64,000 nucleotides of DNA, taken from NCBI GenBank assembly GCA_023231005.1, contig JALNWG010000006.1, positions 43,060 through 107,059 on the forward strand, read 5' to 3'. The translations under genes were made by a program, and so were the position numbers. Origin of the DNA: Bacteroidales bacterium. GTDB lineage: Bacteria > Bacteroidota > Bacteroidia > Bacteroidales > FEN-979. Below are positions 34,826-60,622 of the stretch, piece by piece; position 1 is the first letter of the stretch, and each line of letters starts with the position of its first letter. The notes under the pieces were generated by a model. That model did no database searches. It saw nothing but the letters and a program-made list of their open reading frames with translations, and was not told the DNA's origin.

Positions 34826-35389
34826 CTACCAGTGATAATTGTGATGGTGGTAATGATTGTACCGCAGGGATTGCATATTGTTATAACACTGGCTTGCCTG
34901 GCTTGAAAAGTATCCGGTCATGTTATATCCCTGCATCTTATGGTACATCGTGCTGTCATGCGACCAGCAGTCGCCGAATCCTTGCCAATTCTGGAATTGT
35001 AGGGTATCGAGTCCGCATTGCCAGTTGCCCATGTTCCAATTGCCACCTCCCATATTCCAGTTCCATCCGCCATTACCATAGTTTTGCCCGCCATGGTTGG
35101 CATATATGTTACGGCAATAATCATAAAAATTATATGAAAACAAACTGTCGTACTGATTGAACTGGTGCCAGTAAAAATAACAGCTATCATGACTGCCCGA
35201 TCCTGTACGCTGATGAAAACTTACCAGGAGTGCATCGTTGGCCGTGGCTGCCTTATAATTATTCTGCATTGCGTTGGCTTGAGCAAGAGGATCGGGAGTC
35301 GTGGTCGTTGTGCTCTCTTTCTTGCAGCCGACCAGAGCTATGAGCAAAGAAAAAGTAAGAATGAAAAGACTGTTTCTCAAATTTTTCAT
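34826..35389 (-). CDS. Trp/Asn/Gly/Tyr/His-rich lipoprotein, paralogue of the Met-rich lipoprotein at 60922-61473
   Basis: Lipobox LVGC. GGWNWNMGGGNWNMGNW repeat. C-terminus YNHYHHHNYHW. Shared anchors with the Met-rich protein: TTPD, LLV..H...G, DS.C, YDSL, YC, NMQS. Confidence 0.6.
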   Translation of the reverse strand: MKNLRNSLFILTFSLLIALVGCKKESTTTTTPDPLAQANAMQNNYKAATANDALLVSFHQRTGSGSHDSCYFYWHQFNQYDSLFSYNFYDYCRNIYANHGGQNYGNGGWNWNMGGGNWNMGNWQCGLDTLQFQNWQGFGDCWSHDSTMYHKMQGYNMTGYFSSQASQCYNNMQSLRYNHYHHHNYHW

Positions 35390-35532
35390 GTTTTCTTTGG
35401 ATAAAAATGTTTTTGAAACAAACGGATTAAATTACTTATTATTATATGTAGATGCGATGATGTAAGAATGGTTGCTTCAAACTGGAAAATTTATTTTTAC
35501 GAAACTTCCGGGTAAATATTGATTTGCTTCAA

Positions 35533-36048
35533 CTATTCCAATTCAAAACCTGCTTTCTTAATTTGGCCTTCTAAATCAGAGTATTTGATAATTTTGTGGT
35601 CGTACTCAATGTAAACCTGGTTCGATTTTTTATTCAGCTTGAAGTTTTTAACACCCTTGATACTGGATAAAATCTCACTCAGTTGCTTATCCTGCCCTTC
35701 TTTTAATCTGGTAAAACAAATTACCGTTTTATCTTCATCTATTGTAATATCCTTAACAATATCTTTCCCCTGAGCATCCCGAATGATCCGGGCATCCAGA
35801 TAAAGCCCGAACGGCAATTGGGATAATTTCGTTTTCTTATTATTAAATTTAACGGTCATGTTTGTATCGACATTAACCGGCAAACAAGCTGCCGAGCCAT
35901 ACACACAAATGACAATTCTATCGTTACCCATCTTTTCATTTCCGATGGTTCCAGTGATTTTTTCCTGGTTCTGGGAAAAGACAGATGAAAATCCGGTTAA
36001 TGAGACCAGAAATATGACGACGATTATTTTTAATTGATATTTTTTCAT
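35533..36048 (-). CDS. secreted protein with C-terminal HMA-like (ferredoxin-fold) region lacking CxxC
   Basis: Signal peptide. The C-terminal IKGVKNFKLNKKSNQVYIEYDHKIIKYSDLEGQIKKAGFELE has an HMA-like pattern without the metal-binding Cys pair. Confidence 0.4.
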   Translation of the reverse strand: MKKYQLKIIVVIFLVSLTGFSSVFSQNQEKITGTIGNEKMGNDRIVICVYGSAACLPVNVDTNMTVKFNNKKTKLSQLPFGLYLDARIIRDAQGKDIVKDITIDEDKTVICFTRLKEGQDKQLSEILSSIKGVKNFKLNKKSNQVYIEYDHKIIKYSDLEGQIKKAGFELE

Positions 36049-36093
36049 TAGTCAGAATTTTAATAGGTTTAAAAAGATTAACTTACATGATTT

Positions 36094-36480
36094 TTACAAT
36101 GATTTTATCACTGCCTGGAGTTTTGCTGTTATTTCCTGCGCAATGCCTGCCAGGTCAGGATTTTTAATAGCCATCATGGATGCGATGGGATTCACGGCTG
36201 ATATTTCAATACGATCTACAGCAAATTCCTGGACAATGACGTTACATGGCAACATTGTCCCGACTTTGTCTTCGGCCTGAAGCGCTTTGTAGGCATAGGG
36301 TGGATTACAGGCTCCCAGAATCCTGTACCGGCGAAAATCCACATTCAACTTTTCTTTGAGTTTTTCATGGATGTTGATTTCGGAGATAACGCCAAACCCT
36401 TCTTTTTTAAGGGCTTCTGTGGTTTTTTGTACAGCTTCGTCAAACGAAGTTTCCAATGTTTTGCTGAAATAATATTCCAT
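36094..36480 (-). CDS. DUF302 domain protein
   Basis: 128 aa. AVQKTTEALKKEGFGVISEINIHEKLKEKL...YRILGACNP is the DUF302 pattern as I recall it. Confidence 0.7.
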   Translation of the reverse strand: MEYYFSKTLETSFDEAVQKTTEALKKEGFGVISEINIHEKLKEKLNVDFRRYRILGACNPPYAYKALQAEDKVGTMLPCNVIVQEFAVDRIEISAVNPIASMMAIKNPDLAGIAQEITAKLQAVIKSL

Positions 36481-36531
36481 GTTTAAACAATTTAACGGTT
36501 ATTAATACTAATTACTGATTAAAGATAAGGT

Positions 36532-37131
36532 CTATTTTAAACTTTCAAAATAAAAATGATTTACACGATACATCTTATAATAATCATCATAGATTAACAA
36601 TTCCTCATCTGATTTGAAATATAAATCAATCAGATCGTGAAACTTTTTATTCGTGGGGAAGGAGGATTCCAAATTTGATAAATTCAATTCTTTCAAAGGG
36701 CTGTCCGATTTTTCACTAAAGAAATATGAGATTGTATGACTTGAGTTATTGCCCCTGGGATTCATATTTCTAATATAATGTTTCTGGTAAATAATAATAG
36801 AGGATCTATCAATGATCTCAAACTCTTGATTTTTGAATATCCTGTACTCTTTCCCATTACACAAACGATAACCCCAAATAGAAGATTTAGCTAATTTAAA
36901 AGTTGAATCATGATATGAAATACGAACCGTTTTTCGTTGATCAAAATCGGAATTCTTAATGCTGTTCCTGTTGTTCAGACAGTTTGTTTCGTAGGTAAGT
37001 TTACCTTTTGAGAAATCATCTGAGGTCATATACAAGCCGCTTTTACTTGTCTTTGAATCAACTGCCTGTCCTTTGCAAGTACCAGCAAACACTACCAGGA
37101 TTACTGAAAATAATAATGTTGTCTTTTTCAT
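36532..37131 (-). CDS. secreted hypothetical protein (very AT-rich gene)
   Basis: The start at 37131 (MKKTTLLFSVILVVFAGTCKGQ) is preferred. The track start at 37221 would overlap the ATPase. A spot line at 36541 is 20% GC. Confidence 0.4.
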   Translation of the reverse strand: MKKTTLLFSVILVVFAGTCKGQAVDSKTSKSGLYMTSDDFSKGKLTYETNCLNNRNSIKNSDFDQRKTVRISYHDSTFKLAKSSIWGYRLCNGKEYRIFKNQEFEIIDRSSIIIYQKHYIRNMNPRGNNSSHTISYFFSEKSDSPLKELNLSNLESSFPTNKKFHDLIDLYFKSDEELLIYDDYYKMYRVNHFYFESLK

Positions 37132-37186
37132 AACTATCCAGATTAAATATAAAAAAAAGAAGGGACTTCGTGACCCGCAATTAATT

Positions 37187-39283
37187 TTAAGATGAAATAT
37201 TCTTTTGAACTCTGATAGCATTAAAAACTGCTATCAAAGCAACACCCATATCACCGAAAACTGCCTCCCACATTGTGGCAATACCAAAAATTCCCAGAAC
37301 AATAAAAAGCAGTTTGACGGTCATGGCAAAGAGGATGTTCTGCCAAACGATGATCCGGGTCCGTTTTGCCAGGTCTATCGCCATGGCCACCTTCGATGGT
37401 GAATCGGTCATCAGAACGACATCGGCAGTTTCAATGGCGGCATCCGAGCCAAGTGCTCCCATTGCAATACCAACGTCTGCACGGGCAATCACCGGGGAAT
37501 CATTTATGCCATCGCCGACGAAGGCTACTTTGCCGCCTTTGCTTTCAGACATTAATCTCTCGATATGATTGACTTTATCTTCTGGGAGAAGCTGAGAAAA
37601 GAATTTGCCAATATTTAATTTCCGGGCAAAGGCGGATGCAGCATATTGGTTATCGCCGGTAAGCATGACGGTCTGAATGTTCCTGGCATTCAGCTTTTCG
37701 ATGGCTTCAATCGCATCATCTTTCAGGGAATCCGAAATAATGATATACCCGGCATATCTCGCATCAATGGCAATGTGGACAACCGTTCCTTCAACCTCGC
37801 AAACCGGATGTTGAATGTTCTCTTTATGCAACAGTTTATCATTTCCGGCAAGAACTGTTTTACCGTCAATAATTGCCCGGATGCCAAATCCTGAAATTTC
37901 ATCTACCTGCTTAATCCTGGAGTAGTCGATCTTCCGGTCAAACTTTTCAGTAATTGATTTCGCAATGGGATGGTTGGAACTTGACTCAGCATAGGCGGCG
38001 AATTCCAGTATTTCTGAGGCAGAAAACCCGTTCGATGTAACAATCTCGGAAACTTTGAATTCACCTTTAGTCAGCGTACCTGTCTTGTCGAATACCACGG
38101 TTTTAACCTTCGTCAGTGCATCCAGAAAATTTGACCCTTTGACCAGGATACCTCGTTTTGAAGCGGCCCCTATTCCACCGAAATAGCCCAGCGGAATACT
38201 GATCACCAGGGCACACGGACATGAAATTACAAGCACTACCAAGGCCCGGTAAATCCAGTCGCTAAACGTTTGGCCATTGAATAACAGCGGTGGCAAAATG
38301 GCAAGCATCAATGCCCCAATAACCACCACCGGCGTATAATATTTAGCAAACGTGGTGATGAATTTCTCGGTCTCTGCTTTTTTTGACGAGGCGTTCTCGA
38401 CCATTTCAAGGATTTTTGAAACGGACGATTCACCAAATAATTTAGTCACGCTGATGGTGAGCAAGCCTGTTTGATTTATCATACCGGCCAGCACCGTATC
38501 CTTCTCATTGACCTTTCTTGGAACACTTTCTCCTGTAAGAGCTGAAGTATCCAAAAAAGAGATACCTTCGACGATAACACCGTCAAGTGGAATTTTCTCC
38601 CCGGCTTTAACGATAATGGTATCACCAACCCTGACAGCTTCAGGGTCGACCCTTGAGACCTCTCCATTCACTGACAAATTTGCGTAGTCGGGCTTTATCT
38701 CAAGCAGAGATTTGATGGATCTCCGGGAACGATTCACGGCAATATCCTGGAACAACTCTCCGACAACATAAAAGAGCATGACAGCTACCGCTTCAGGCAT
38801 CTGGTCAATGGCAAATGCTCCAAGGGTTGCCACTACCATCAAAAAATGCTCATTGAAAACCTGGCCTTTGACAATATTTTTTCCAGCCGACACAAGGACC
38901 TTCCATCCGGTGATGAGATATGCTGCTCCAAAAACAAGGTATTCCAGATAATGATACGGAGTATCATGAAGATAGTCCTCAAATATCAACCCTGAAACCA
39001 ACAATAAAAGACCCAGAGAAGCTTTAATAATAGTCTGTCTGTTTTCAGCGAGTTCACTGACTGAAATCATCGCTTTCCCTTTATCATCCGTTTCAATCTC
39101 AACTTCCGGTTCAATCTCTTTGATCCTGGATTTCACCTTATCTATGTCATCCGTATCGATTGTCATGGTTGAATGAACGAAGTTTACATTGACAAACTTC
39201 ACTTCTCCCATTTTGGTTAGACCGTCTTCTATTTTTGCGGCACATGATGCGCAATCAAGGTTCTTCAGTTTGTACTTTTTCAT
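37187..39283 (-). CDS. heavy-metal P-type ATPase, P1B-2 (Zn/Cd/Pb) signature
   Basis: N-terminal HMA CASCAAKIE. TM6 CPCALVISIP (CPCx4SxP). DKTGTLT, SNHP, GDGINDSP. TM7 NILFAMTVK (Nx7K). TM8 GDMG (DxG). Confidence 0.9.
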   Translation of the reverse strand: MKKYKLKNLDCASCAAKIEDGLTKMGEVKFVNVNFVHSTMTIDTDDIDKVKSRIKEIEPEVEIETDDKGKAMISVSELAENRQTIIKASLGLLLLVSGLIFEDYLHDTPYHYLEYLVFGAAYLITGWKVLVSAGKNIVKGQVFNEHFLMVVATLGAFAIDQMPEAVAVMLFYVVGELFQDIAVNRSRRSIKSLLEIKPDYANLSVNGEVSRVDPEAVRVGDTIIVKAGEKIPLDGVIVEGISFLDTSALTGESVPRKVNEKDTVLAGMINQTGLLTISVTKLFGESSVSKILEMVENASSKKAETEKFITTFAKYYTPVVVIGALMLAILPPLLFNGQTFSDWIYRALVVLVISCPCALVISIPLGYFGGIGAASKRGILVKGSNFLDALTKVKTVVFDKTGTLTKGEFKVSEIVTSNGFSASEILEFAAYAESSSNHPIAKSITEKFDRKIDYSRIKQVDEISGFGIRAIIDGKTVLAGNDKLLHKENIQHPVCEVEGTVVHIAIDARYAGYIIISDSLKDDAIEAIEKLNARNIQTVMLTGDNQYAASAFARKLNIGKFFSQLLPEDKVNHIERLMSESKGGKVAFVGDGINDSPVIARADVGIAMGALGSDAAIETADVVLMTDSPSKVAMAIDLAKRTRIIVWQNILFAMTVKLLFIVLGIFGIATMWEAVFGDMGVALIAVFNAIRVQKNISS

Positions 39284-39339
39284 TGTTATCCATTTATGAA
39301 AACTTTCAACAATCTGCCTTACTAAAATAAAATGTCAAA

Positions 39340-39373
39340 GTTCAGTCCGTCCGGTTATACGGGCGGACTGAAC
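39340..39373 (-). other. 14-bp stem hairpin (one mismatch) between the PII-like gene and the ATPase gene
   Basis: gttcagtccgtccg (39340-39353) pairs with cgggcggactgaac (39360-39373), loop gttata. Only a weak U-tract follows on the minus strand. Confidence 0.4.
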
Positions 39374-39380
39374 AACATTC

Positions 39381-39719
39381 TCAATCTTGACCATTCTCCA
39401 TGCCGGTTTTTACGCGATAAACTTTTTCGACAGGACTGACAGTAATTATCCCATCTCCAGGATTTCCTGTTCTTCCGACAGAAGAAATGATACTAACTAT
39501 ATTTTCAACTTCGGTATCCTTACAGATAATTCCAATTACAGCTACTTTACTGTCAGTAATTGAAAAATGCGTTGACAGTGTTGAATCACTGTTTTTAAAG
39601 TTACCTGTGCCTTCGGATAAGTCAACTGTGATATTAGGATGCCCGGCTTCGAGAAGCTGGTTTAAAATATCATTGACTTTGAAGGGTTTAACTATGGCTT
39701 TTACTTCTTTCATATTCAT
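39381..39719 (-). CDS. PII-superfamily protein with divergent T-loop (metal-efflux-linked PII-NG type)
   Basis: MKEVKAIVKPFKV... and GDGIITVSPVEKVYRVKTG parallel GlnB. The T-loop region lacks the GlnB Tyr51 context. Confidence 0.7.
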   Translation of the reverse strand: MNMKEVKAIVKPFKVNDILNQLLEAGHPNITVDLSEGTGNFKNSDSTLSTHFSITDSKVAVIGIICKDTEVENIVSIISSVGRTGNPGDGIITVSPVEKVYRVKTGMENGQD

Positions 39720-39737
39720 ATTTTTTTAGAATTAATT

Positions 39738-40925
39738 TTACCCGCAGCTCATTTCACCTGCATTTTTTTTGGCTGAAAGCAGATTATACGCACCCTTGAT
39801 CACGACCTTAGCTGTTTTAATGTCGAGGTCTTTAGGCAATACAACCTCCGTAAAGCCTTCATCCGTGACACCTTTCTGCACTTCAATCATTCGGTATTCT
39901 GTAAACTGCTTTCCATTTTCTTCCTTATTCTTTTCAAAAACAAAAATATAATCCTTGTCATCAAAGCTCACTATTGACTCAGACGGTAAGGCTGTCACTT
40001 CACCTGAGGTAGCTTCAATCATCGCGTTTACATACATGCCCGGAAGAACATTCTTGCAATTACTTTCTACTGTGGCGTAAACTTTATATGTTTTGTCGGC
40101 ATTTACAACTTTTCCTGTCTGGTAAATGATTGCAGCGTGCTGATCTGATTCATTGTTTATAAAGAAACGAATCTTTTGCCCGACTGAAACTTTGTCTGCA
40201 TCTTTTTCAAAAAGTGTGAGTTCGAGATAGAGTTTATTACTATTGACAATCTCGAATAGGATGTCGGTTGGGGCAACATATTTCCCTATATTCACGTTGA
40301 CTGCCTTAATATAACCGGATATTGGGGCAACAACAGCAACAGACCTGGTGATATCGTCTTCATGCAGTTCAGCAGGATTAATGCCGATCATGTTCAGTTT
40401 TTGTTCGAGGGCATGGACCTGAGCTTTCAGACTTTTATAATCGGATGTTACCTGTTGGAGGTTTTTCTGAGAGTATACATCCTCCTTGTATAACTCGGCA
40501 TGTCGCTTATAGTCGGCTTCCGTAAATTCAAGTTTGCTTTTCGCTTCCAGGTAGTTCTGCTGGATGTCAACGAACTCCTGATTTTCCAGAATGGCCAGTG
40601 TCTGTCCTTTGGTCACTGCAATGCCTGGCATCAGGTTGGCGCTTTTGACAAAACCACCAAATGGCATGCATACCGTAGCAAGATTTTCCGGAGATACTCC
40701 GACCAGGCCGGTAACTTTAAGCGTTCCGCTTATGGAACGCATTCCTACCGAACCTGTTTCAATATCGGCTAGTTTGATCTGGTCATCTCTTAACTCCACT
40801 ATATCCTCTGGCAGAACTTCCGCTTCTTTCGTTTCCTGGATGTTTTTTTTTCCTCCATTGCATGAGACCAGGATCGCAATAAATGCTGTCAGAATGAAGG
40901 TTTGTATGAATCGATTTGTTTTCAT
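39738..40925 (-). CDS. RND periplasmic adaptor (CzcB-like membrane fusion protein)
   Basis: 395 aa. Lipobox LVSC, coiled-coil hairpin, barrel-sandwich hybrid motifs. Immediately downstream of the RND pump. Confidence 0.85.
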   Translation of the reverse strand: MKTNRFIQTFILTAFIAILVSCNGGKKNIQETKEAEVLPEDIVELRDDQIKLADIETGSVGMRSISGTLKVTGLVGVSPENLATVCMPFGGFVKSANLMPGIAVTKGQTLAILENQEFVDIQQNYLEAKSKLEFTEADYKRHAELYKEDVYSQKNLQQVTSDYKSLKAQVHALEQKLNMIGINPAELHEDDITRSVAVVAPISGYIKAVNVNIGKYVAPTDILFEIVNSNKLYLELTLFEKDADKVSVGQKIRFFINNESDQHAAIIYQTGKVVNADKTYKVYATVESNCKNVLPGMYVNAMIEATSGEVTALPSESIVSFDDKDYIFVFEKNKEENGKQFTEYRMIEVQKGVTDEGFTEVVLPKDLDIKTAKVVIKGAYNLLSAKKNAGEMSCG

Positions 40926-40937
40926 GATATTTTCAGA

Positions 40938-43900
40938 TTAAAAAATTTTTCCGGTTATAAAATCGAGGTTGATAATGGTCTGATTATAGCTGTTGAGCGC
41001 ATCAAGATAATTTTGCTTGATGCCAAGCGCTCTGTTTAGCGTGATGACATAATCGAGGTAATCCAAGGCTCCTGCCTTGTAGCTCTGGCTTGATTGTTCT
41101 ATGATCATGTCCGCTTCAGGAATGGCTTGCTGTTCATAATAATCAACACTGGTACTGAATTTATTGTATTCATCCAGGAGCGAGCTGTAATTACTTTTCA
41201 GTGCAGCCGTAAAATATTCAGCATTCGTACCGGCAACTTTTTCCTGTAATCTGGCAGCCTTTGTTTTCTGTATTCCAGGACCAAACCAGATCGGGATCCC
41301 AATTCCGGCCTGAAGACCAGTAAACCTGTAAGCGGCATCAAAGGTCCGGGGTACCCCATCGATCTCCTGTGTCCCGATAATGGATTGATTATAATATCCG
41401 ATGCTCAGATCGGGCCACATCCGACTGGCTTCAAGCTGCTTTGTTCTTTGAGCCACTTCCACTTGTTGCCGGATGTAGCCAAGAGATGGATTCTCTGCAA
41501 GGACAGTACTATCCTTCGTTTTTGCGAAACCGATCCGATGCAGGACTGAATCCACTGTATAAACAACCTGACTGGTATTAAGCAGGGTTTGCAATTTTCG
41601 GTAATAGATTCCGACATCGATGTTTACCTGGTGGAGCTGATTTTTAATCTCAAAACTTTGCGAACGGGCGGTGATCATTTCCAGCCTATTTGTCTCTCCG
41701 GACTTTGCCCTGAGATCTGCAGCCCGCAAGAAACCAGAGTATAAACTGTCCTGGTAAACGAGTAAACGCTCCCGGGATAACAGATAAGCCAGTTGCCAGT
41801 AAACCTGCTTAACCTGAATGGCAACCTCAAGCCTGGAACTTTTCAGTTGCCAATCAGCGCTGTTGATATTGGCTTGTGACAATTTATTCTGATTAACATA
41901 CACTGTGGGAAATGCAAAAGACTGTGAAATGGTAAAGCTATTGTCTTTCTGATAGGAGTTAAACTGCCCGTATTGTCCTTCCACCACTGTTTTAGGAATA
42001 TCCCAGGAAGCGCCTTTCAGCGCCTTCTGTACATCTTTAGAATAGGCCGTAGATCGTATTGACAGATTGCTGTCAATGGCAATTTTTATGGCTTCCTGCA
42101 GATTGACTTTTCTTGGATTTTGAGCCTTAGCTGAGATAAAGGCTGAAGGCAGAAAGAAAAGTAACAAGAGCATCAAAGCAGTTACTGATTTCCTTTTAAA
42201 GGAAAACCTGAACCTGCGGGAGAATAGGATATAAAAGACCGGCAGAACCACTAGCGTGAGAAAAGTGGCACTGATCAGCCCGCCAATCACAACCGTCGCA
42301 AGTGGTTTTTGAACTTCAGCCCCTGCCGAGGTCGAGAGAGCCATTGGAAGAAATCCGAGCGAAGCCACGGCAGCAGTCATTATAACCGGTCGTAACCGTG
42401 AATGGAGACCTTTCAAAACACGTTCAGTAATATCCGTTATACCCTCCTTTTCCAGCCGGTTAAATTCTGCGATCAACACGATGCCATTCAGTACCGCAAC
42501 TCCGAAGAGTGCAATAAAACCGACACCGGCAGAAATGGAAAAGTTCATATCCCGTAACCACAACGCAAAGACACCTCCGATGGCCGACATAGGCACTGCG
42601 GTAAAAATGATGAAAGTTTGTTTAACGGAGTGAAATGTAAAAAACAGCAGGACGAATATCAGAAGCAATGCCACTGGGACTGCAACCGCAAGCCTGCTTT
42701 TTGCAGCTTCAAGGTTCTTGAACTGTCCTCCATAAGTAACATAATACCCTGTAGGCAGAATAACCTGTTTATCAATATTTGCAGTGACATCATTGATCAC
42801 ACTTTGAACATCACGGTTTCTTACATTAAACCCTATGGTGATGCGCCGTTTGGTGTCTTCCCGGGAAACCTGGGCGGGACCTGACTTAATGGTTATATCT
42901 GCCACCTGTTCCAGTGGCAATTGCGATCCATTGGGCAGGCCGACTGAAATATTCTTGACATCGTTCAGACTTTGCCTGAAATCCTTGTCAAAACGGACGA
43001 CCAGCCCGAATCTTTTTTCTCCGTCAAAAACCACTCCTGCCTGACTTCCTGCAAATGCTGCACGCAGCACCTTGTTGGCATCATCCACTGAAAGGCCATA
43101 CTGGGCCAACCTGTCACGGTTAAAATCAACCTGGACCTGAGCCAACCCGGTTACCTTCTCAACATTAATGTCCTCAACACCTTCGATCTGCTGAATGATC
43201 TTCTCTAAATCTTCGGCCTTTTCTGCCAACGTTTTAAGGTCATCACCAAATATTTTAATGGCAATATCCTGCTTCGAACCCGTCATCAGTTCGTTGAACC
43301 GCATTTGGATAGGTTGCTGGAATTCAAATTTGACGCCTGCAAGCGGAACCAGCTTTTCTTCCATCTTTTCAACCAGTTCTTCACGGGTTTTTGCAGATGT
43401 CCATTCACTTTTATTTTTCAGGGTGATTACATAATCCCCGGTTTCCATCGGAGTCGGGTCTGTAGGAATTTCTCCTGCTCCAATTTTGCAGACAGTATGT
43501 TTAATTTCCGGGAAATTATTCAAAAGGATCTTATTTGCTTTGATCACGGTCTCTACTGTATTGGATAGTGATCCTCCCTGAAGCGTAATGACACCGGCAG
43601 CCAAGTCCCCTTCTTCGAGCTGAGGAATAAACTCCCCTCCAAGCCGGCTGAACATAAACAGGCTGAAAAGGAAAAGCGCAATGGATAGAGAAACCACAAT
43701 AAACTTATGTTTCAGAGCTAAAGCAATCGTAGGATTAAAAATACTATGGAACCAGTCCATCAAACGGTTGGAAAAATTCCGTTTGTGCTCGGTCTTTTTG
43801 CTAAGGAACAGGGCAGATGCCATCGGAACATAGGTCAGTGACAGAATGGCTGCGCCAAGGAGGGCAAATGCCACAACCTGTGCCATGGGCCGAAACATTT

Positions 43901-45323
43901 TACCTTCGATTCCGATGAGCGCCATGATCGGAAGATAAACGATCAGGATGATGATTTGTCCGAAGGTTGCCGAACTCATCATTCGTTTGGCGGATTCAAA
44001 GACATTTTCATCCATTTGCACCTGAGAAAGTTTTTTAACACCAACATGATGATGGTTGCTCAGGGATATTCGGTGAACAACGCTTTCGACAATGATCACC
44101 GCACCATCCACAATGAGGCCGAAGTCGATCGCTCCAAGGCTCATCAGATTTCCCGAAACACCAAAAAAATTCATCATGGAGATTGCAAACAGCATGGATA
44201 GCGGAATCACTGAGGCTACGATCAATCCGGCTCTGATATTCCCAAGCAGTAAAACCAGAACGAAGATGACGATAAGGGCGCCCTCGATCAGGTTTTGAGA
44301 AACCGTCCCGATTGCCCTGTCAACGAGGTCTGAACGATTCAGGAAAGGTTCAATCTTAACCCCTTTTGGCAGGGACTTCTGAATAGAAACGATGCGGTTT
44401 TCAACATTGTCGATCACCTCATGGGCATTCGCTCCTTTGAGCATCATAACAACCCCGCCAACAGCTTCACTGGTATCAACCACAAAAGCACCGTAACGGG
44501 TGGCGCTTCCGAATTGCACGGTCGCAACATCCCTTATTAAAACAGGGATCCCTGACGGATTATTTCTGACTACGATTTTTTCAATATCGCTTAGTGTTTT
44601 GACAAGACCAATACCTCGAATGAAATAGGCTGTTGGCTTTTTGTCTATGTAAGCGCTGCCAGTGTTCTCGTTGTTCTTCTCAAGGGCTTCAAAAATATCC
44701 GTCAGGGTCAGGTTCATCCCCCTGAGCCGTTCAGGGTTGACAGCGATCTCATATTGCTTGACGAAACCTCCATAACTGTTTATGTCAGCAACACCGGAAG
44801 TGCCAAGCATTTGACGCCGTACGACCCAATCCTCGAGCGTACGAAGTTCCATCGGGGTGTATTTCTTCTCCAATCCTTTGTCGACAACCAGTCGGTACTG
44901 ATAAATCTCCCCGAGTCCGGTACTGATCGGGGCCAGTTCAATTTTAGCCAATCCGGCGGGAATAACGTCCTCAGCTTCTTTAAGCCGTTCGCTAAGTTGC
45001 TGCCTGGCCCAATAGATATTGACATCATCTTTAAAAACGATGGTGACGACCGACAATCCCAGCCGTGAAATTGACCGGAGTTCAATAATGTCGGGGATAT
45101 TGGCGACAGCAACTTCAATAGGCGCTGTTATGAAACTTTCGACCTCCTGCACTGCAAGTGAAGGCGCTAATGAGATGACCTGCACCTGGTTATTCGTTAT
45201 ATCGGGTATTGCATCTATGGGAAGTCGCATCAGGGAATAGGTTCCCCAACCGACCAGTGCCAGAACAAACAGCCCGATAATGAATTTGTTCTTTACTGAA
45301 AAATGAATAATACGTTCTATCAT
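40938..45323 (-). CDS. CzcA-type heavy-metal RND pump fused in frame to a TolC/CzcC-type outer-membrane factor
   Basis: 1461 aa. Residues 1 to ~1040 are RND (GAIDFGLIVDGAVIIVE proton-relay motif). Residues 1043-1067, KRKSVTALMLLLLFFLPSAFISAKA, are signal-peptide-like. Residues 1068-1461 are OMF-like. Confidence 0.85.
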   Translation of the reverse strand: MIERIIHFSVKNKFIIGLFVLALVGWGTYSLMRLPIDAIPDITNNQVQVISLAPSLAVQEVESFITAPIEVAVANIPDIIELRSISRLGLSVVTIVFKDDVNIYWARQQLSERLKEAEDVIPAGLAKIELAPISTGLGEIYQYRLVVDKGLEKKYTPMELRTLEDWVVRRQMLGTSGVADINSYGGFVKQYEIAVNPERLRGMNLTLTDIFEALEKNNENTGSAYIDKKPTAYFIRGIGLVKTLSDIEKIVVRNNPSGIPVLIRDVATVQFGSATRYGAFVVDTSEAVGGVVMMLKGANAHEVIDNVENRIVSIQKSLPKGVKIEPFLNRSDLVDRAIGTVSQNLIEGALIVIFVLVLLLGNIRAGLIVASVIPLSMLFAISMMNFFGVSGNLMSLGAIDFGLIVDGAVIIVESVVHRISLSNHHHVGVKKLSQVQMDENVFESAKRMMSSATFGQIIILIVYLPIMALIGIEGKMFRPMAQVVAFALLGAAILSLTYVPMASALFLSKKTEHKRNFSNRLMDWFHSIFNPTIALALKHKFIVVSLSIALFLFSLFMFSRLGGEFIPQLEEGDLAAGVITLQGGSLSNTVETVIKANKILLNNFPEIKHTVCKIGAGEIPTDPTPMETGDYVITLKNKSEWTSAKTREELVEKMEEKLVPLAGVKFEFQQPIQMRFNELMTGSKQDIAIKIFGDDLKTLAEKAEDLEKIIQQIEGVEDINVEKVTGLAQVQVDFNRDRLAQYGLSVDDANKVLRAAFAGSQAGVVFDGEKRFGLVVRFDKDFRQSLNDVKNISVGLPNGSQLPLEQVADITIKSGPAQVSREDTKRRITIGFNVRNRDVQSVINDVTANIDKQVILPTGYYVTYGGQFKNLEAAKSRLAVAVPVALLLIFVLLFFTFHSVKQTFIIFTAVPMSAIGGVFALWLRDMNFSISAGVGFIALFGVAVLNGIVLIAEFNRLEKEGITDITERVLKGLHSRLRPVIMTAAVASLGFLPMALSTSAGAEVQKPLATVVIGGLISATFLTLVVLPVFYILFSRRFRFSFKRKSVTALMLLLLFFLPSAFISAKAQNPRKVNLQEAIKIAIDSNLSIRSTAYSKDVQKALKGASWDIPKTVVEGQYGQFNSYQKDNSFTISQSFAFPTVYVNQNKLSQANINSADWQLKSSRLEVAIQVKQVYWQLAYLLSRERLLVYQDSLYSGFLRAADLRAKSGETNRLEMITARSQSFEIKNQLHQVNIDVGIYYRKLQTLLNTSQVVYTVDSVLHRIGFAKTKDSTVLAENPSLGYIRQQVEVAQRTKQLEASRMWPDLSIGYYNQSIIGTQEIDGVPRTFDAAYRFTGLQAGIGIPIWFGPGIQKTKAARLQEKVAGTNAEYFTAALKSNYSSLLDEYNKFSTSVDYYEQQAIPEADMIIEQSSQSYKAGALDYLDYVITLNRALGIKQNYLDALNSYNQTIINLDFITGKIF

Positions 45324-48775: not shown

Positions 48776-48776
48776 A

Positions 48777-48947
48777 TTACTTTTTAAATGATGGGTCTTT
48801 GACAAAGATCAGGGCGAAGCAAACCGGGGCAAATACCACGTATTCGCTCAATGTTGCCTTGCCGATTCCGACCAGCGCTAAACCACCGGCCAGCATCAGG
48901 ATGCCTGTCAGGGTGGTTTTCCAATTCTTAAAAATTCTCTCTTTCAT
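48777..48947 (-). CDS. holin candidate (56 aa, two TM helices), not in the ORF track
   Basis: Hand translation: MKERIFKNWKTTLTGILMLAGGLALVGIGKATLSEYVVFAPVCFALIFVKDPSFKK*. The stop lies 1 nt before the endolysin ATG. Confidence 0.5.
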   Translation of the reverse strand: MKERIFKNWKTTLTGILMLAGGLALVGIGKATLSEYVVFAPVCFALIFVKDPSFKK

Positions 48948-52071: not shown

Positions 52072-52419
52072 TCATTTTTTTACTGGCCGGTCATACTGGC
52101 AGCATCCTAGCAATGCATTGTAAGTTTTATCAGTGGCTTTGGCATTATCAGTATCGTGTCCGACCTTTGCAACTGCTTCTTCGATCTTTATGGCTGTGGT
52201 CTTGGTGTCATCAAAGGTCACAGTTAACATTAAATCTTCTGAATCCCACGTTGCTTTGGTGACGCCTTTTACGGAATTGGCAGCCTTCTCGATCCGGGTT
52301 TTACACATGCCGCAATTACCGTAAACTTTGATTTTTTCGGTTTTCGCAACATTGGCAAAAATTGAGGTCATGCTGAAAAACAGCAAACCTACTACTAACA
52401 TCATTGATTTTGTTCTCAT
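52072..52419 (-). CDS. periplasmic heavy-metal-associated (HMA) domain protein
   Basis: Signal peptide. YGNCGMCKTRIEKAANSVKGVT (CxxC). C-terminal DKTYNALLGCCQY. Paralogue of the C-terminal domain of the adjacent adaptor. Confidence 0.75.
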   Translation of the reverse strand: MRTKSMMLVVGLLFFSMTSIFANVAKTEKIKVYGNCGMCKTRIEKAANSVKGVTKATWDSEDLMLTVTFDDTKTTAIKIEEAVAKVGHDTDNAKATDKTYNALLGCCQYDRPVKK

Positions 52420-52448
52420 CGTTTTTAAAATTTAGTGGTTAAAAAAAA

Positions 52449-54107
52449 TTACTTTCTGTAATGACAGCACTCAGGTAAACTCTCGTATGTTTTGTCATCA
52501 GCTTTAAACTTTTCAGTATCATGTCCTGCTCTGGCAATGGCCTTCTGTATAGCGCTCAGATCGGTTTTCATGGAGTCAAATTCCACCTTGATTTTGTGAG
52601 TTTTTGTATCCCAGATGGCCGATGTTACGCCACCAACCGATTTAGCAGCCTTTTCTATCCGTTCCTTACACAAGTCGCAATTCCCGGATACGGTAAACAT
52701 TTCATTCTCTATCATAGGTTTCATTGATTTATCCATTGTTTCTTTAGTTGGCTGTGTTGATTTGTCCGCCGGGTCAGGGTTCCCCTTCGACCTTTTATCC
52801 CCGGGCATATCCATTCCAGGCATAGATGAAACCTGGCCACCTGAGGGATTCATCATACTCGGCTTGCCTTCAAGCTGGGCGGCTGCATCCACGCTGAACG
52901 TCCCCTGGGTTACAATTTCCTCTCCTTCGGTCAGACCATCCGCTACAATATAACTGCTGCCCAGCATGGGACCAAGACCAATTTCCCTGATTTTGAATAT
53001 GGGTTCGTCCGTTCCGGGCAGTTTTACATAAACAATGGAGCGTTTGCCGGTCCATAATACGGCTGAACGGGGAATAACCATTTTATCCTTAAATTCGGCC
53101 ATGTTGGCCTTGACAACCCCGGTGGCAAACATCTCCGGTTTCAATTTTCCTGAGCGGTTGTTAATCTCAACCCTTACCTTTGAAACACGGGTTATCGGAT
53201 CAACCACTGGATCAATAAAGATGATTTTTCCCGAATAAGTCTCCCCGGGCATAGCCTGGACAGTAAAATCAATTTTATCGCCGGATTTCAGAAATGGCAG
53301 GTCACTCTCGTAGGCATCAAACATAACCCATAAGGAGGTAAGATCAACAAGATCATATAAGGAAGTACCCTGCGAGACATAATCACCATTGTTCACCCGC
53401 CTTGAAGTAACGATTCCTGAAATGGTTGAAACAACTTCAAATTTGGTTTGAACCTTTCCGGAATTCTCTATGCCGGCAATCTGACTATCTGAAAGCTTCC
53501 AAAGCTGCAGTTTTTCCTTTGCTGCTTCATATATCTCGGGTTGGGATTGTTTTGTCTTCGCAGCTTCGAGCAATTCCTGTTGAGCAGTAACCAATTCCGG
53601 TGAGTAAATTAATGCCAGGGTTTGGCCCTTTTTAACCGTCTCACCTGTAAAATTCACCAGTAGTTTGTCGATACGTCCGGGGTATTGTGCAACCTGGCTT
53701 TGCAACAACCTTTCATCGGCCTGTAGCTTGCCATACAGCCTGACTTCTTTAACAGATGATTGGCGCGAAACCACCGAAGTGAGGACATTGGCGAGTTGGG
53801 CAGCTTCCTTGGTTAAATGAATAGCATTGGGGTCAACATCCGCTACATTCTGGTTTAGCGGGATCAGGTCCATGCCACAGATGGGGCATTTTCCCGGGGC
53901 ATCTCTGCGGATCTGAGGGTGCATCGCACAAGTCCAGATTGTTGTCTTTCCATCCTGTACGGCATGTTCATGCTTTTCCTCTACTTTTCCTGAGGAATGA
54001 AAAAACAGCCAGCCAATAAACAGACCTCCAATAGCAAACAAACTGAAATGGAAATATCTGTTGAACAAAATTTTCTTCATCAATATTGAACTCTTCGTGG
54101 TATTCAT
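52449..54107 (-). CDS. CusB-like RND adaptor with N-terminal CPxHPx-type metal-binding domain and C-terminal HMA domain
   Basis: 552 aa. TM, then WTCAMHPQIRRDAPGKCPICGMDL (53859-53939). MFP core. Met/Pro-rich linker MMNPSGGQVSSMPGMDMPG. C-terminal GNCDLCKERIEKAA...CCHY (52452-52697). Confidence 0.85.
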   Translation of the reverse strand: MNTTKSSILMKKILFNRYFHFSLFAIGGLFIGWLFFHSSGKVEEKHEHAVQDGKTTIWTCAMHPQIRRDAPGKCPICGMDLIPLNQNVADVDPNAIHLTKEAAQLANVLTSVVSRQSSVKEVRLYGKLQADERLLQSQVAQYPGRIDKLLVNFTGETVKKGQTLALIYSPELVTAQQELLEAAKTKQSQPEIYEAAKEKLQLWKLSDSQIAGIENSGKVQTKFEVVSTISGIVTSRRVNNGDYVSQGTSLYDLVDLTSLWVMFDAYESDLPFLKSGDKIDFTVQAMPGETYSGKIIFIDPVVDPITRVSKVRVEINNRSGKLKPEMFATGVVKANMAEFKDKMVIPRSAVLWTGKRSIVYVKLPGTDEPIFKIREIGLGPMLGSSYIVADGLTEGEEIVTQGTFSVDAAAQLEGKPSMMNPSGGQVSSMPGMDMPGDKRSKGNPDPADKSTQPTKETMDKSMKPMIENEMFTVSGNCDLCKERIEKAAKSVGGVTSAIWDTKTHKIKVEFDSMKTDLSAIQKAIARAGHDTEKFKADDKTYESLPECCHYRK

Positions 54108-54111
54108 AATA

Positions 54112-55569
54112 TCAATTTTCTTGAATGGGTGAAGATGCCATCAAACGTTGTAACCAGGAAATTGCCGTGTTGTAATCTACAACAGCTTCAATCTTTTTAA
54201 ATTCATAATCAAGCAACTGCTGCCTGACCCGTAAAATATCAGTGAGCGGGACAACAGATGTGGAAAGGCCTTTTAACATGATGTCAAGTGTTTTGCCGGC
54301 CAGATCACTCTGACTATCGTATAACTTCACCCTGCGTTGCCCGTCTTTAAATAATTGAACCGCTTCGTAATAGTTGGTTTGCAGAGAATTGGCCGTTGCT
54401 TGGTAATTTTCCTTATTGGCAGATTTCAATAACTCAGCCTCGATTTTCATGGCATTGTACTTATTCCGGTATATGGGCAAGGTAACCGTTGCCATCGGCA
54501 TGATCATATCCTTACCATTCATTGACGATGTGGACATCGCGCTTTTACTGATCACAGAATAATTCAATCCCAGCCCCATCATCGGATACCCCATTTTGGT
54601 AACCATTTTTTGGCGTGCATCCAGCGATTGCTGCTCGTATTGCAGCATCCCCAGCATGGGGTTATGTGAAAGCATGCTGTCTGTTACCGCAAGAAGTGAT
54701 AAGCCAAGTGAATCAGGAATAAGCTGATCAGGTAATTGAACAGGTGAAGCTGAAGGTCGGTTCAAATAAGCATTGAAACGGGCTTCGATTGTGTTTCGCT
54801 GGGTCTTCAACAGTTCAATATTGTTTTCAAGTTCACCAATTTCGATCTGAATCCTGTATAAATCGGCCAAGCCTGATCCACCGGATGAGCTGCCCATGGA
54901 GCTGCTTTGCATGGCAGATGGTGACTGAGCTGAACTTGCTCCCGACTGGCCACCGGAATTTCCACCCATGGTCTGCATTCCTTGTGGATTTGCGGAACTG
55001 CTTTGTGATGAGCCCGCCGGATTGGATGTTCCTGATGCAGGACTACTGTTTCCTCCTGCCGGAGCTGCTTTAAATTTCACCAGGGTGAGCCGCTCAATCG
55101 TATGCAGGATATCAAGGTTCTTTTCAGAAATCCGAATATCCTGCTGAACTTTCTGCAACTCGTACCAGCTCTTTTTCACATCAAAAAACACCTGCAATTT
55201 GGCATCCCTGAATGATTCAAATTTTGCTTTTGCCATAAGACTCATCTCATCCTTTGCGGATTTCAGCGTACCGAACCAGGGAAACATCTGCATCAGTTTT
55301 ATATCTGCGTTCTGTCTACCGTCAACGAGTTCCATGGGTTGAATAAATACTCCGACGTTTAATTCAGGATCCGGTAACGCTCCAACCTGCGGAACTTTTT
55401 GAAGTGCAGCCTGATATTCATAGAACTTCTGTTGAACAGTCGGGTTGTTCTTTGCTGATATGACCAGGTATTGCAACAGTGAGTCCGGTTGTTTCTGGCT
55501 GCTGGCAACAAACCAACCACAGGCCCCGATGAAAGCCAGCAATATGTTTTTATAAGCTGTGATTTTCAT
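54112..55569 (-). CDS. TolC-family outer-membrane factor with Ser/Gly/Gln/Met low-complexity insertion
   Basis: 485 aa. Two OEP-like repeats. Residues ~168-233 are low-complexity (AAPAGGNSSPASG...MQTMGGNSGG...AMQSSSMGSSSGGSG). Confidence 0.85.
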   Translation of the reverse strand: MKITAYKNILLAFIGACGWFVASSQKQPDSLLQYLVISAKNNPTVQQKFYEYQAALQKVPQVGALPDPELNVGVFIQPMELVDGRQNADIKLMQMFPWFGTLKSAKDEMSLMAKAKFESFRDAKLQVFFDVKKSWYELQKVQQDIRISEKNLDILHTIERLTLVKFKAAPAGGNSSPASGTSNPAGSSQSSSANPQGMQTMGGNSGGQSGASSAQSPSAMQSSSMGSSSGGSGLADLYRIQIEIGELENNIELLKTQRNTIEARFNAYLNRPSASPVQLPDQLIPDSLGLSLLAVTDSMLSHNPMLGMLQYEQQSLDARQKMVTKMGYPMMGLGLNYSVISKSAMSTSSMNGKDMIMPMATVTLPIYRNKYNAMKIEAELLKSANKENYQATANSLQTNYYEAVQLFKDGQRRVKLYDSQSDLAGKTLDIMLKGLSTSVVPLTDILRVRQQLLDYEFKKIEAVVDYNTAISWLQRLMASSPIQEN

Positions 55570-55571
55570 CT

Positions 55572-58500
55572 CTATTGGGTATTACTTGTTTGAATTGCTT
55601 TTTTATTGGCGCGCAATACTGCCCTTTCTCTCCACATCGCCTGGAACATCGGGACCACAAAGACGGTCATCACCTGGATGATCATACCACCAAAGGTTGG
55701 TATCGCCATGGGGACCATAATATCAGCCCCCTTCCCGGTTGATGTTAAAACAGGTAAGAGCGCAATCACCGCAACCGCGGTGGTCATCATGGCAGGGCGG
55801 ACACGTTTCAGCCCGGCAGCAACCACCGCTTCACGAACTTCGTGGACGGTCGTTGGATGTCGTTGTTCAAATACCTGGTGTATGTATGTTCCCATAATCA
55901 CCCCGTCATTGGTAGCAATGCCAAAAAGGGCAATAAAACCGACCCAGACTGCGACACTCAGGTTGATGGTATGCATCTGGAACATATCCCGCAGGTTAAT
56001 TCCGGCAACGGAAAAGTTCATAAACCAACCCTGTCCATAGAGCCAGAGCATTATAAATCCACCGGCAAACGCCACAAAAACACCTGAAAAATGAATGAAG
56101 GCGGCGGTCACCGTACGGAACTGGAAGTACAACAGCAGCAATATAAGGATCAGACTGATGGGGATTACGATGGAGAGCCTTTTTGTGGCCCTGATCTGCT
56201 GTTCATAATTCCCGGCAAATTTGTATGAAACCCCGGGAGGCAGTTTTATACCGCCGGTGCTTATTTTCGCCTGGATGATTTTTGCGGCATCTTCAACTAC
56301 ATCAACTTCGGCTTTACCTTCCTGCATATCGAAGATCACATATCCAACCAGGAAGGTATTTTCACTACGAATCATTTGCGCACCCCTGGTGTAGTCAATG
56401 TCGGCGATCTCACCCAGCGGAACCTGCACGCCATTCATAGCAGGGATCAGAATGCGTTTAATATCATCTGGATTATCCCTTAGTTCACGGGCATAACGGA
56501 CCCTGATCGGGAATCTTTCACGTCCTTCAACTGAGTTGCTGAGCGACATGCCTCCAACTGCCACCTGCAGAATTTCCTGCACGTCGCTGATGCTCATTCC
56601 GTAGCGGGCCATCGCTTCACGGTTCAGCTTAATTTCAAGATAAGGAGCACCAACTGCACGGTCGTAGAATACAGATGTGGCTTTTACAGAAGGGACATCT
56701 TTCAAAACTTTCTCGAACATCATACCTGCCTGTTCGATCGATTCCAGGTCGGGCCCATAGACCTTCAGTCCCATGGGTGCCCGCATCCCGGTGGAGAGCA
56801 TGACCAACCGTGTTTCAATGGGCTGTAATTTCGGTGCTGATGTCAAACCCGGAATGTTGGTCACTTTGACGATTTCATTCCAGATATCGTTTGGTTTTTT
56901 AATCTGCGGGCGCCATTGACGGAAAAATTCGCCTTTTTCGTCCGGAATAAGACTGTCTGCCGGAATTATTCTGAATGTCTCTTTTTCAGGATTGTACTTT
57001 GATCCATTTTTTAACCGGTAGTAATCATTCCTGTCCGTTTTGAACCGCATCCTGTGTCCGTCTTCATCAAGAATATATTCTGACCGGTAGTTTATGGTAT
57101 TCTCGAACATCTGAACAGGTGCGGGATCCAATGCTGAATTCACCCGGCCCCATTTGCCGACGGCAATTTCAACTTCAGGAATGACCGAAAGCCGTTTATC
57201 AAGCGTTTCGATGTACTCAAGGTTTTTTTCAATGCTCGAATGAGGCATACTGGTGGGCATCAGCAGGTATGAACCTTCATTAAGTGAAGGCATGAATTCT
57301 TTACCGGTACCGGGAAATGTTTTCACCGCACCCTGCCATACCGCTGTCTGTCTCACACTCTTCCAGCCGATCTTCTCCAAACCATCCGGGACAATTCCGA
57401 AAATTTTATCAATGCCCTGCCATGCCAGGATGCCGAAAAGCAAAGTAAAAGCAGGAAGCATAAGGAATTTCCATTTATGGATCAAACACCACCGAAGGAT
57501 GGGTTCATAAAAATGTACCATGGTCATCAAGGCACCAAGAATGACAGTCACGATACCGGCCACAAAAATGAAGTTGACAACAGAACTGTTGTGAGCGCCC
57601 AATGGAAGCCATTCGATGGAAAGGTACCAGACAGCTACCAAAACAGTGATGGCAATGTTGATGTAGTTGGTTATTGCACTGCTTTTTTCTTTCCACAGAT
57701 GTCCGGATAAATTATTGAATCCGATGGCAACCAAAGCCAAAGCCGGCCATGTGTGCCAGAAAATGACAAACAGGACCCCTGCACCAATTAGAATTCCGTT
57801 CCAGATTTTGCGAATTTTGGTCTTGTCAAAACGTATATTAAAAAAAATGTGCACCAGTGTTGGCAAAACAATGATGCCAAGTAGAAAAGCCGACAGAAGG
57901 GCAAACGTTTTGGTAAAGGCCAATGGTCGGAAAAGTTTTCCTTCGGCAGCTTCCATGGCAAATACAGGTAAGAAACTTACTATGGTAGTGGCAATCGAAG
58001 TAACCACGGCAGCTCTCACTTCTGTAGTCGCCTGGTAGATGACATCCAGCAATTTCTTTCCCCGTATCCCCTTATTCTCCGGCATCTCCAGGTGTCGAAG
58101 GATATTCTCTACATCCACAATACCAATGTCAACCATAACGCCAATAGCAATTGCAATTCCTGACAAGGCGACAATGTTGGCATCAACCCCGAAGAAGCGC
58201 ATCAGGATAAAGGTCATCAGCACTCCCAAAGGCAATAATCCGGCGACAATGAATGAAGCCCGCAGGTTCATGACAAGCACAATAATGACGATGATGCTGA
58301 TAAGGATTTCATGGGACAGGGCATATTCAAGGGTGCCAATGGTTTCCTTGATCAACCCGGTCCTGTCGTAGAAAGGAACAATGCTCACTTTTGAGATACT
58401 GCCATCCGGCAAGGTCTTTTGAGGCAACCCTGCTTCAATTTCCTTTATCTTCTGTTTCACATTGCCGATGACCTCCATCGGATTGGAACCGTAACGGGCA

Positions 58501-59423: not shown

Positions 59424-59480
59424 AGATTTAATTTAAAAACATGATCCATTTCGCCATTTACACGCTCATTTTCAGCTAAG

Positions 59481-60584: not shown

Positions 60585-60622
60585 ATTGTTTTATGGTCTG
60601 ATTAGGTGACTGATATATATGA

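Follow-up and report, generated by a model that had tools for sequence, protein, structure and literature searches.

We examined a 64,000-nt stretch of DNA from a Bacteroidales bacterium (contig JALNWG010000006.1, positions 43,060 to 107,059; hereafter the window) that encodes two small lipoproteins, A and B, in two heavy-metal efflux (HME) cassettes of different types. Lipoprotein A is the last gene of a czc-type cassette, and lipoprotein B is the second gene of a cus-type cassette, in which it follows the gene for DUF8199/HYC_CC_PP (Table 1). An original prediction, made from the DNA alone, had proposed that the two proteins share a scaffold, that their bulk compositions have been exchanged (Trp/Asn/His-rich in A, Met-rich in B), and that they represent one accessory family retuned for different metals. 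Both translations start with a signal peptide and a lipobox (MKNLRNSLFILTFSLLIALVGC in A and MRKIAIIAIGAVMLFAASC, …LFAAS↓C, in B), and the invariance of the lipobox Cys in an 85-sequence family alignment places the family among the signal peptidase II lipoproteins. By direct reading against the criterion as we know it, no acidic Bacteroidota surface-export signal follows the lipobox Cys.

We found that A and B are true paralogues on one scaffold. BLASTP aligned the first 95 residues (E = 3e-8), and a Smith-Waterman alignment of the mature proteins scored 140, compared with 31 +/- 5 in 2000 shuffles, none of which reached the real score (z = 21). The N-terminal 75 residues, which have an ordinary composition, gave z = 13 and the biased C-terminal part gave z = 6.5, indicating that the match is not due to the low-complexity parts. 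At the profile level, hhalign matched the A subfamily (23 sequences) to the B subfamily (24 sequences) with 99.1% probability and E = 3.7e-19 across 187 columns. The predicted common scaffold is thus upheld by pairwise and profile alignment, with scores far above those of shuffled sequences. While both proteins do contain Gly-rich low-complexity tracts, a chance resemblance between them can be dismissed given the shuffle test, the signal in the ordinary N-terminal segment, the hhalign result and the identical predicted topology. Among the shared motifs that had been listed, TTPD, (S/A)LLV..H...G, YC(R/K) and a Gly-rich repeat followed by Cys do occupy homologous columns, but the YDSL, (D/N)C and NMQS pairs do not. 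The YDSLF of A aligns with PDTSF of B, whose YDSLY lies 8 residues upstream; the cysteines of the (D/N)C pair are in different columns; and NMQSLR of A aligns with NMQTMR of B, not with its NMQSM. The motif given as DS.C reads DSC in A.

The family to which the two proteins belong is rare, with 89 matches when its profile was searched against 1.84 billion representative proteins. The few members carrying a taxon label are all from Bacteroidota (Bacteroidales, Prolixibacteraceae, Cyclobacteriaceae, Saprospiraceae and Ekhidna, the last with the member P0165 in the genome of an Ekhidna sp.). No relatives were found in Pfam, NCBIfam or the PDB: a Pfam scan of 45 members at E up to 10 matched no CusF, DUF305, LTXXQ or other family, beyond weak LPAM_1 matches in three members, and the best match of the family profile among all PDB sequences had an E-value of 0.95, to unrelated proteins. 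A literature search on the family, DUF8199, DUF6660 or a Bacteroidota substitute for CusF returned nothing relevant. In agreement with the original prediction, which did not recognize the family, we therefore consider it new to databases and searchable literature, with a likely role of a known kind.

Members of the family fall into three tiers. The first consists of A-type long forms (22 homologues of A, 51-91% identity); the second of Met-rich long forms, divided between B and another group that has the motif DSLFSEHFYxFC; and the third of short forms of ~145 amino acids, which have two helices fewer, a core of YNDSL…YDSxYHxxDSLF…(loop)…MxxLRxxHxxYHP, and a loop of the GGMM type or of a His-rich type (DDHHH…, with His reaching 18%). 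One further protein, P0058 (294 amino acids), is a whole short-form domain duplicated in tandem. In a rough neighbor-joining tree the A clade was nested within the Met-rich long forms, which suggests that Met-richness is probably the ancestral state and that the A clade derives from Met-rich ancestors. GMMN repeats still occur in the loop of some A-type members. A and B share the following conserved residues (A/B numbering where they differ): H59/58, D68/67, C70, D81, C92, C125/122, D128/125, D145/143, H179/177 and H183/181. Family-wide, the lipobox Cys and the first His of a C-terminal H-x3-H are invariant; His, Asp and Cys at the hairpin turn and the H-x3-H of the last helix are kept in all clades, and the short forms conserve the His at the start of the second helix (H2) and both His of the H-x3-H.

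AlphaFold2 models of A and B, built on a 45-sequence alignment, have one five-helix topology in which a long H1-H2 hairpin is followed by a disordered loop and three further helices. The model of A (predicted local distance difference test, pLDDT, 75.9; predicted template modeling score, pTM, 0.70) has helices at residues 34-62, 68-99, 123-134, 141-154 and 163-182, and that of B (pLDDT 80.5, pTM 0.74) has the same helix order. In both, a stretch of ~20 residues with pLDDT <50 corresponds to the Gly-rich repeat and is bracketed by the conserved Cys92 and Cys125/122, which in A may form a disulfide that staples the loop. Loop length varies with repeat number, and a Met-rich relative at L033 (7392-7961, minus strand; the L numbers designate collected loci) has a loop of (GDGGMM)x8. 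Three tryptophans of the A loop (W109, W111 and W123) are at least 90% conserved although the loop is predicted to be disordered. The DNA encoding the B loop contains a 21-bp tandem repeat of 2.5 copies, and no tandem repeat was detected at the DNA level in the loop of A. An origin of the WNWN repeat of A by frameshift of a GGMM repeat was rejected, by inspection only: the alternative-frame open reading frame (ORF) over the A loop (34918-35190) has no Gly/Met repeat, and the codon patterns are not interconvertible by a shift. A Foldseek search of both models against the PDB gave no match at E <= 0.001.

The compositional biases of the two proteins are pronounced. Mature B contains 34 Met in 165 residues (20.6%), which is 7.7 times the background of 2.7% in 31 other genes of the window (p = 2.5e-20), while A contains 4.8% Trp, 12.7% Asn, 9.6% Tyr and 6.6% His, each 2.4-5 times background. 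H1 is unbiased in both, and the bias spans the region from the hairpin turn to the C-terminus. These biases are properties of the clades: in all 22 A-type relatives Met accounts for 3-7% and Trp for 1-5%, about 28 B-type relatives have 14-20% Met and no Trp, and Met-rich members overall have 10-21% Met, with a content of ~20% sustained across clades down to about 25-30% identity. The exchange of composition claimed for A and B therefore holds and extends to their homologues, and the strings quoted in its support (GGWNWNMGGGNWNMGNW, the HYHHHNYHW tail and GMMGGSGGMMGGSGGMM) are all present. It is not, however, a swap of ligand chemistry residue for residue, which the alignment rules out: where B has its 29 conserved Met columns, A has L, G, Y, Q, M, F, N, H and others. 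Many Met of B are spaced i, i+3/4, i+7 along H2-H5, which indicates that they line one face of these helices, presumably the core-facing one, and are not substitutes for particular Trp or Asn residues.

The two cassettes were assigned to metal types through their pumps. The resistance-nodulation-division (RND) protein of the czc-type cassette, RND1, carries AIDFGLIVDGAVIIVES in transmembrane helix 4 (TM4), which is DFGX3DGAX3VEN with the final N changed to S. As DFGX3DGAX3VEN is the TM4 signature of divalent-cation HME1/2 pumps (PMC3637150), RND1 was classified as CzcA-type (HME1/2). The P1B ATPase of the same cassette scored above the cut-off of the Cd/Zn (IB2) model and below that of the Cu (IB1) model. 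The RND protein of the cus-type cassette, RND2, carries AIAIGVMVDIGIVDVEN; the best PDB relative of its 311-residue periplasmic segment is CusA (E = 8e-41, vs. 3.5e-16 for ZneA), and it has Met at all of the positions corresponding to CusA M573, M623 and M672, which we take to be the three-methionine site of CusA. RND2 was accordingly classified as CusA-type (HME4). These results agree with the Zn/Cd and Cu cassette types originally proposed.

Table 1. Features of lipoproteins A and B and of the cassettes that encode them, in window positions.
Feature	Position	Strand	Description
Lipoprotein A	34826..35389	(-)	ORF; 187 aa; Trp/Asn/Tyr/His-rich family member; closing gene of czc-type cassette
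A, signal peptide and lipobox (…LIALVG↓C22)	35324..35389	(-)	Translation; Cys invariant in 85-sequence whole-family alignment
A, hairpin turn HQRTGSGSHDSC	35180..35215	(-)	Carries H59, D68 and C70, each conserved in both subfamilies
A, Cys92-(Gly/Trp/Asn loop)-Cys125: CRNIYANHGGQNYGNGGWNWNMGGGNWNMGNWQC	35015..35116	(-)	Predicted disordered; pLDDT <50 at residues 103-122
A, C-terminal HYHHHNYHW	34829..34855	(-)	Family-wide H-x3-H (H179, H183) and A-clade-specific HNYHW end
Conserved AT-rich element upstream of A-type genes, GCATCTACATATAATAATAAG (…TATATTTGCATCTAcATATAATAATAAG…)	35435..35455	(-)	Alignment of 8 upstream loci
czc-type cassette	35533..45323	(-)	Pfam, NCBIfam; TM4 motif; A follows as last gene
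czc, RND-OEP fusion (RND1)	40938-45323	(-)	1461 aa
czc, CzcB-like adaptor	39738-40925	(-)	
czc, P-II-like protein	39381-39719	(-)	Pfam P-II, E 1e-14
czc, Cd/Zn-type P1B ATPase	37187-39283	(-)	
czc, protein of no assigned family	36532-37221	(-)	229 aa
czc, DUF302	36094-36480	(-)	
czc, HMA-like protein	35533-36048	(-)	171 aa
Lipoprotein B	60922..61473	(-)	ORF; 183 aa; Met-rich family member
B, Cys92-(Gly/Met loop)-Cys122: CKDMMKMNGMGSNGMMGGSGGMMGGSGGMMC	61108..61200	(-)	Predicted disordered; partly encoded by 21-bp tandem repeat
B, HAKLH	60931..60945	(-)	Family-wide H-x3-H, C-terminal helix; alignment, translation
DUF8199/HYC_CC_PP Cys-rich small membrane protein	61595..61996	(-)	NCBIfam NF047658
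cus-type cassette downstream of B	52072..60910	(-)	Pfam, NCBIfam
cus, HMBD lipoprotein	60623-60910	(-)	
cus, type IX secretion system (T9SS)-tailed protein	59481-60584	(-)	
cus, CusA-type RND (RND2)	55572-59423	(-)	1283 aa
cus, OEP	54112-55569	(-)	
cus, CusB-type adaptor with HMBD and HMA	52449-54107	(-)	
cus, HMA protein	52072-52419	(-)	

To relate composition to pump type, we collected 35 loci, typing the pumps by tblastn and the TM4 motif and counting distinct contexts. Subfamily alignments were used for these locus searches, as broad alignments had no stretch conserved enough. Met-rich members, from all three tiers, adjoined DUF8199 and a Cus-type RND gene in 12 of 12 contexts, and A-type members adjoined a DFG-DGA-VE RND-OEP fusion in 6 of 9; in another context, L019, the A-type member is flanked by a cation diffusion facilitator transporter and an RND pump of another type. 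The usual company of the A clade is thus a CzcA-type pump together with a Zn/Cd-type ATPase. The correlation, the lack of which had been proposed as grounds for refutation, is thus perfect for Met-rich members with Cus-type pumps and good, but not strict, for A-type members with Czc-type pumps. Same-strand adjacency to pump and adaptor was found, as in our working class of HME-RND operon accessory genes. DUF8199 is the most constant neighbor of the Met-rich lipoprotein, with which it probably forms a functional pair; every cus-type cassette examined has both. The His-rich short forms occur in islands that also carry CusB, HMBD or DUF3347 genes. At L031 (8454-10441), L032 (8399-10447) and L034 (7468-10486), His-rich and Met/Trp short forms lie behind a conserved gene pair encoding a porin-like protein (402-412 amino acids, weak Porin_O_P match) and a cytochrome-c-like protein (88-89 amino acids), in what looks like a separate module using the same lipoprotein family; for the His-rich forms the two sizes are 405-412 and 89 amino acids.

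Small periplasmic proteins that serve metal efflux systems are known, and we compared the family with them. CusF, encoded in the cusCFBA operon of E. coli, acts in the periplasm as a metallochaperone for Cu(I)/Ag(I); it folds into a soluble beta-barrel and has one Met2His site, which is capped by Trp. Lipoprotein B is likewise small, predicted to be periplasmic, encoded in a CusA-type HME-RND operon and suited to methionine chemistry, but it is predicted to be all-alpha and lipid-anchored, with 20% Met and a disordered Met/Gly loop. The family does not belong to CusF: the 45 members scanned have no match to CusF_Ec, and the AlphaFold2 models contain helices only. A scan of eight cus-cassette products detected no CusF domain, and B may therefore fill the CusF role. 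Another comparison is with CopM, a helical, Met/His-rich protein. CopM of Synechocystis is periplasmic, binds Cu(I) tightly, is encoded beside the HME-RND operon copBAC and confers resistance alone (PMC4335983). It resembles the proteins described here in its size of about 190 amino acids, in its periplasmic location, which for them is predicted, and in the adjacency of its gene to an HME-RND system; it differs in not being a lipoprotein, in lacking a Cys-flanked Gly-rich loop and in having no detectable sequence relationship to the family, whose Pfam and PDB profile searches also give no ground for membership in CopM/DUF305. The disordered GGMM loop of B resembles the flexible recruiting or buffering segments of other proteins. 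In SilE and PcoE, flexible stretches rich in Met or His bind Cu(I)/Ag(I), and CueO has a Met-rich domain for transient recruitment of Cu(I) (PMC11494321). In B, in contrast, the segment sits between two Cys on a confidently predicted, Met-lined helical bundle, and no homology to these proteins was detected.

Taken together, we consider the family to be putative lipid-anchored periplasmic metal-binding accessories of heavy-metal efflux cassettes, functional analogues of CusF and CopM in which a conserved His/Asp/Cys core is combined with a re-codable capture loop; we would give this interpretation about an even chance of being right. The tethered lipoprotein would capture periplasmic metal ions with its flexible, ligand-rich loop and ligand-lined helix faces. 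In B the Met thioethers would coordinate Cu(I)/Ag(I), in the manner of CusF, CopM and the CueO Met-rich domain. The ion may then pass from the loop to the conserved His/Asp/Cys site, and be buffered there or given to the pump adaptor or to HMBD/HMA proteins. Lipoprotein A would be the same device after loss of Met, with His, Asp and Cys acting on a divalent metal, and its conserved Trp might serve in cation-pi capping or in contacts with a partner or the membrane. The case for metal binding appears reasonable for B, given its Met/Gly loop, Met-lined helices and location inside a Cus operon whose eight scanned products include no CusF domain; CopM and the Met-rich domain of CueO are precedents. 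It appears weaker for A, in which candidate His, Asp and Cys ligands are conserved and the loop Trp have no obvious role with Zn or Cd.

If the family does bind metal, it would supply the missing chaperone or buffer of Bacteroidota cus-type systems. To our knowledge, nearly all that is understood of how metals are handed to RND pumps in the periplasm comes from proteobacterial CusF. The Met-, His- and Trp/Asn-rich forms would also provide a natural series on one scaffold for studying how metal selectivity is coded, and the family could serve as an annotation marker for metal-resistance islands in environmental Bacteroidota.

Several observations weigh against a metal-binding accessory. The A-type gene of L033 has as neighbors a chromate transporter and a Cus-type cassette equipped with a Met-rich member of its own, that of L012 has no pump within 10 kb, and no RND pump adjoins the His-rich short forms. 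Since each clade has remained with its operon, few independent events underlie the correlation, and the links to context, resting on few clades, may largely reflect inherited synteny. Methionines on helix a/d faces could simply be hydrophobic core. An oxidizing periplasm probably keeps the conserved Cys in disulfides and so unavailable as ligands, and it is from the order of the predicted helices that the conserved His, Asp and Cys would be expected to cluster in space. Trp, Asn and Tyr are, as far as we know from coordination chemistry, not established as normal ligands of Zn(II) or Cd(II), and in A only the His, with the conserved Asp and Cys, could plausibly bind these metals. The idea of one accessory family retuned for each metal therefore survives in part: the paralogy of A and B and the correlation of composition with pump type favor it, while the lack of a ligand swap, the nature of the Trp, Asn and Tyr side chains and the exceptions at L033 and L012 do not. 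A bolder version, in which the scaffold is an evolvable periplasmic metal-capture module that Bacteroidota re-coded at least three times (Met-, His- and Trp/Asn/Tyr-rich) for the export of different metals, with non-canonical recognition by the Trp/Asn form, seems to us rather doubtful. A soft divalent ion such as Cd(II) might then be bound by cation-pi or amide coordination, or the species recognized might be a non-ionic form of a metal.

Alternatively, these proteins may be sensors, regulators or stress chaperones like CnrX/NccX or ZraP/CpxP/Spy, in which metal at the conserved His site modulates a regulator or protects envelope proteins. Those proteins are also small periplasmic helical hairpins associated with metal-resistance genes and having His-based sites on helices, and the long alpha-hairpin of our models, with its H-x3-H and one more conserved His, is compatible with such a role. 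ZraP has a Gly/Met/His-rich tail ending in HW. In addition, A-type genes have an upstream element of their own (Table 1), located 40-70 nt before the start codon and seen in L001, L002, L011, L015, L017 and L022. In relatives a TAnnTTTG-like Bacteroidota -7 box stands before it; the TTTG of this putative box is degenerate in the window copy, and in L015 the element is partly palindromic. The element is unique in the window (0 copies expected by chance), with no second copy ahead of the czc operon or elsewhere. A-type genes are sometimes divergent from a FUR-family gene heading the czc-type operon, and the A-type gene of L002 faces a FUR-family regulator gene. However, no LTXXQ, Metal_resist or other Pfam family was matched at E up to 10, the LTxxQ motif is absent from A and B on direct reading, and CnrX, CpxP, Spy and ZraP are all missing from the 50 best PDB matches that Foldseek listed for each model. 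Nor is an anti-sigma factor or histidine kinase consistently adjacent. We therefore place the family outside the Spy/CpxP/ZraP (LTXXQ) and CnrX types and regard a sensor or chaperone role as unlikely.

A structural role in the pump or membrane, by which the lipoproteins would stabilize or assist assembly of the tripartite pump without binding metal and their composition would reflect packing, oxidation resistance or drift, is less likely again. It draws on the H1-H2 hairpin, which superposes on the alpha-hairpin of AcrA (root-mean-square deviation 2.5 A over 75 residues, Foldseek probability 0.91, but E = 2.3), on the presence in the same PDB list of 9tg4, the lipoprotein YbjP bound to AcrABZ-TolC, and on the fact that the Met columns of B are mostly hydrophobic or Gly positions in A. 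On the other hand, a Met content of ~20% is extreme, is kept across clades and occurs only beside Cu-type pumps; there are His-rich relatives with up to 18% His; and expansion of a loop to (GDGGMM)x8 is hard to explain by packing. Moreover, L023 has a czc-type cassette without an A-type gene, which indicates that A is not an obligatory pump subunit.

The least probable of these three alternatives, in our view, concerns A only: it may be a cargo lipoprotein of mobile elements that was re-purposed from the Met-rich family, to serve, for instance, a prophage or integrative element in envelope modification or exclusion. This would explain the odd Trp/Asn/Tyr composition of A, and A-type genes, which have their own promoter-like element, always lie at the cassette edge and adjoin phage or integrative-element genes. 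In the window and in L017, a tail chaperone-like gene and a tape measure gene stand beside A, with the same A-to-tape-measure junction. The neighbor in L020 is a gene that looks like a large terminase subunit, a putative identity for which no PHROG match was found; in L033 it is a gene for a 209-amino-acid protein homologous to the neighbor of that terminase-like gene, together with an integrase; and in L002 it is an integrase. L033 and L012 have no czc-type pump. Nonetheless, a czc-type pump is immediately adjacent in 6 of 9 contexts, the His/Asp/Cys set common to the Met-rich clade is kept in A, there is no PHROG, phage-genome or IMG/VR match, and no family member was found on known phages, plasmids or IMG/VR contigs. 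Metal-resistance cassettes are, in any case, common cargo of mobile elements. If the Trp/Asn-rich clade does not bind metal, the family would illustrate how mobile elements can re-purpose a protein for metal handling.

The czc-type cassette, including A (10 kb), lies inside a phage-like structural block (24661-51974, minus strand), with phage-like head-side genes on one side and tail genes on the other, all on the same strand. Downstream of the cassette are a 154-amino-acid ORF that overlaps the start of a 1270-amino-acid tail tape measure gene (phrog_25337, E = 3e-71) and a T4 gp9/10-like baseplate protein. Upstream are an endolysin-like gene (48254-48805; phrog_315, E = 2e-34), a DUF6712 adaptor-like protein (49241-50251) and a weakly portal-like protein of 448 amino acids. 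A tyrosine recombinase is encoded at 23681-24586. It would be unusual for a prophage to carry a metal RND cassette. In a close relative, at L022 (8583-10555) of a Prolixibacteraceae metagenome-assembled genome, the two cassettes are contiguous, with the genes in the order …HMA-like protein, A, DUF8199, B…, while in the window A and B are 26 kb apart and split by the czc-type cassette and the phage head-side block, indicating rearrangement or insertion.

Some further features of the cassettes were observed. The RND1 ORF comprises ACR_tran (residues 5-1034) and OEP/TolC (about 1074-1458), a fusion that is kept in relatives (1354-1468 amino acids) and that unites an inner-membrane pump and an outer-membrane channel in one polypeptide, with a working mode that is not obvious. 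L011 and L022 also have the P-II-like gene that separates adaptor and P1B ATPase. RND2 is longer than E. coli CusA (1283 vs. 1047 amino acids) and has large insertions, and this is kept in relatives (1281-1299 amino acids); a hydrophobic insertion at about residues 540-700 looks like extra membrane helices. DUF8199/HYC_CC_PP consists of an N-terminal membrane helix and a HYC…CC…C..C Cys cluster. The HMBD lipoprotein also ends in a Gly-rich Cys/His/Met tail (…GGHNHGDCKMKRNKDGYNYGGSGGGCGMR), so that flexible, ligand-rich tails recur in the cus-type cassette.

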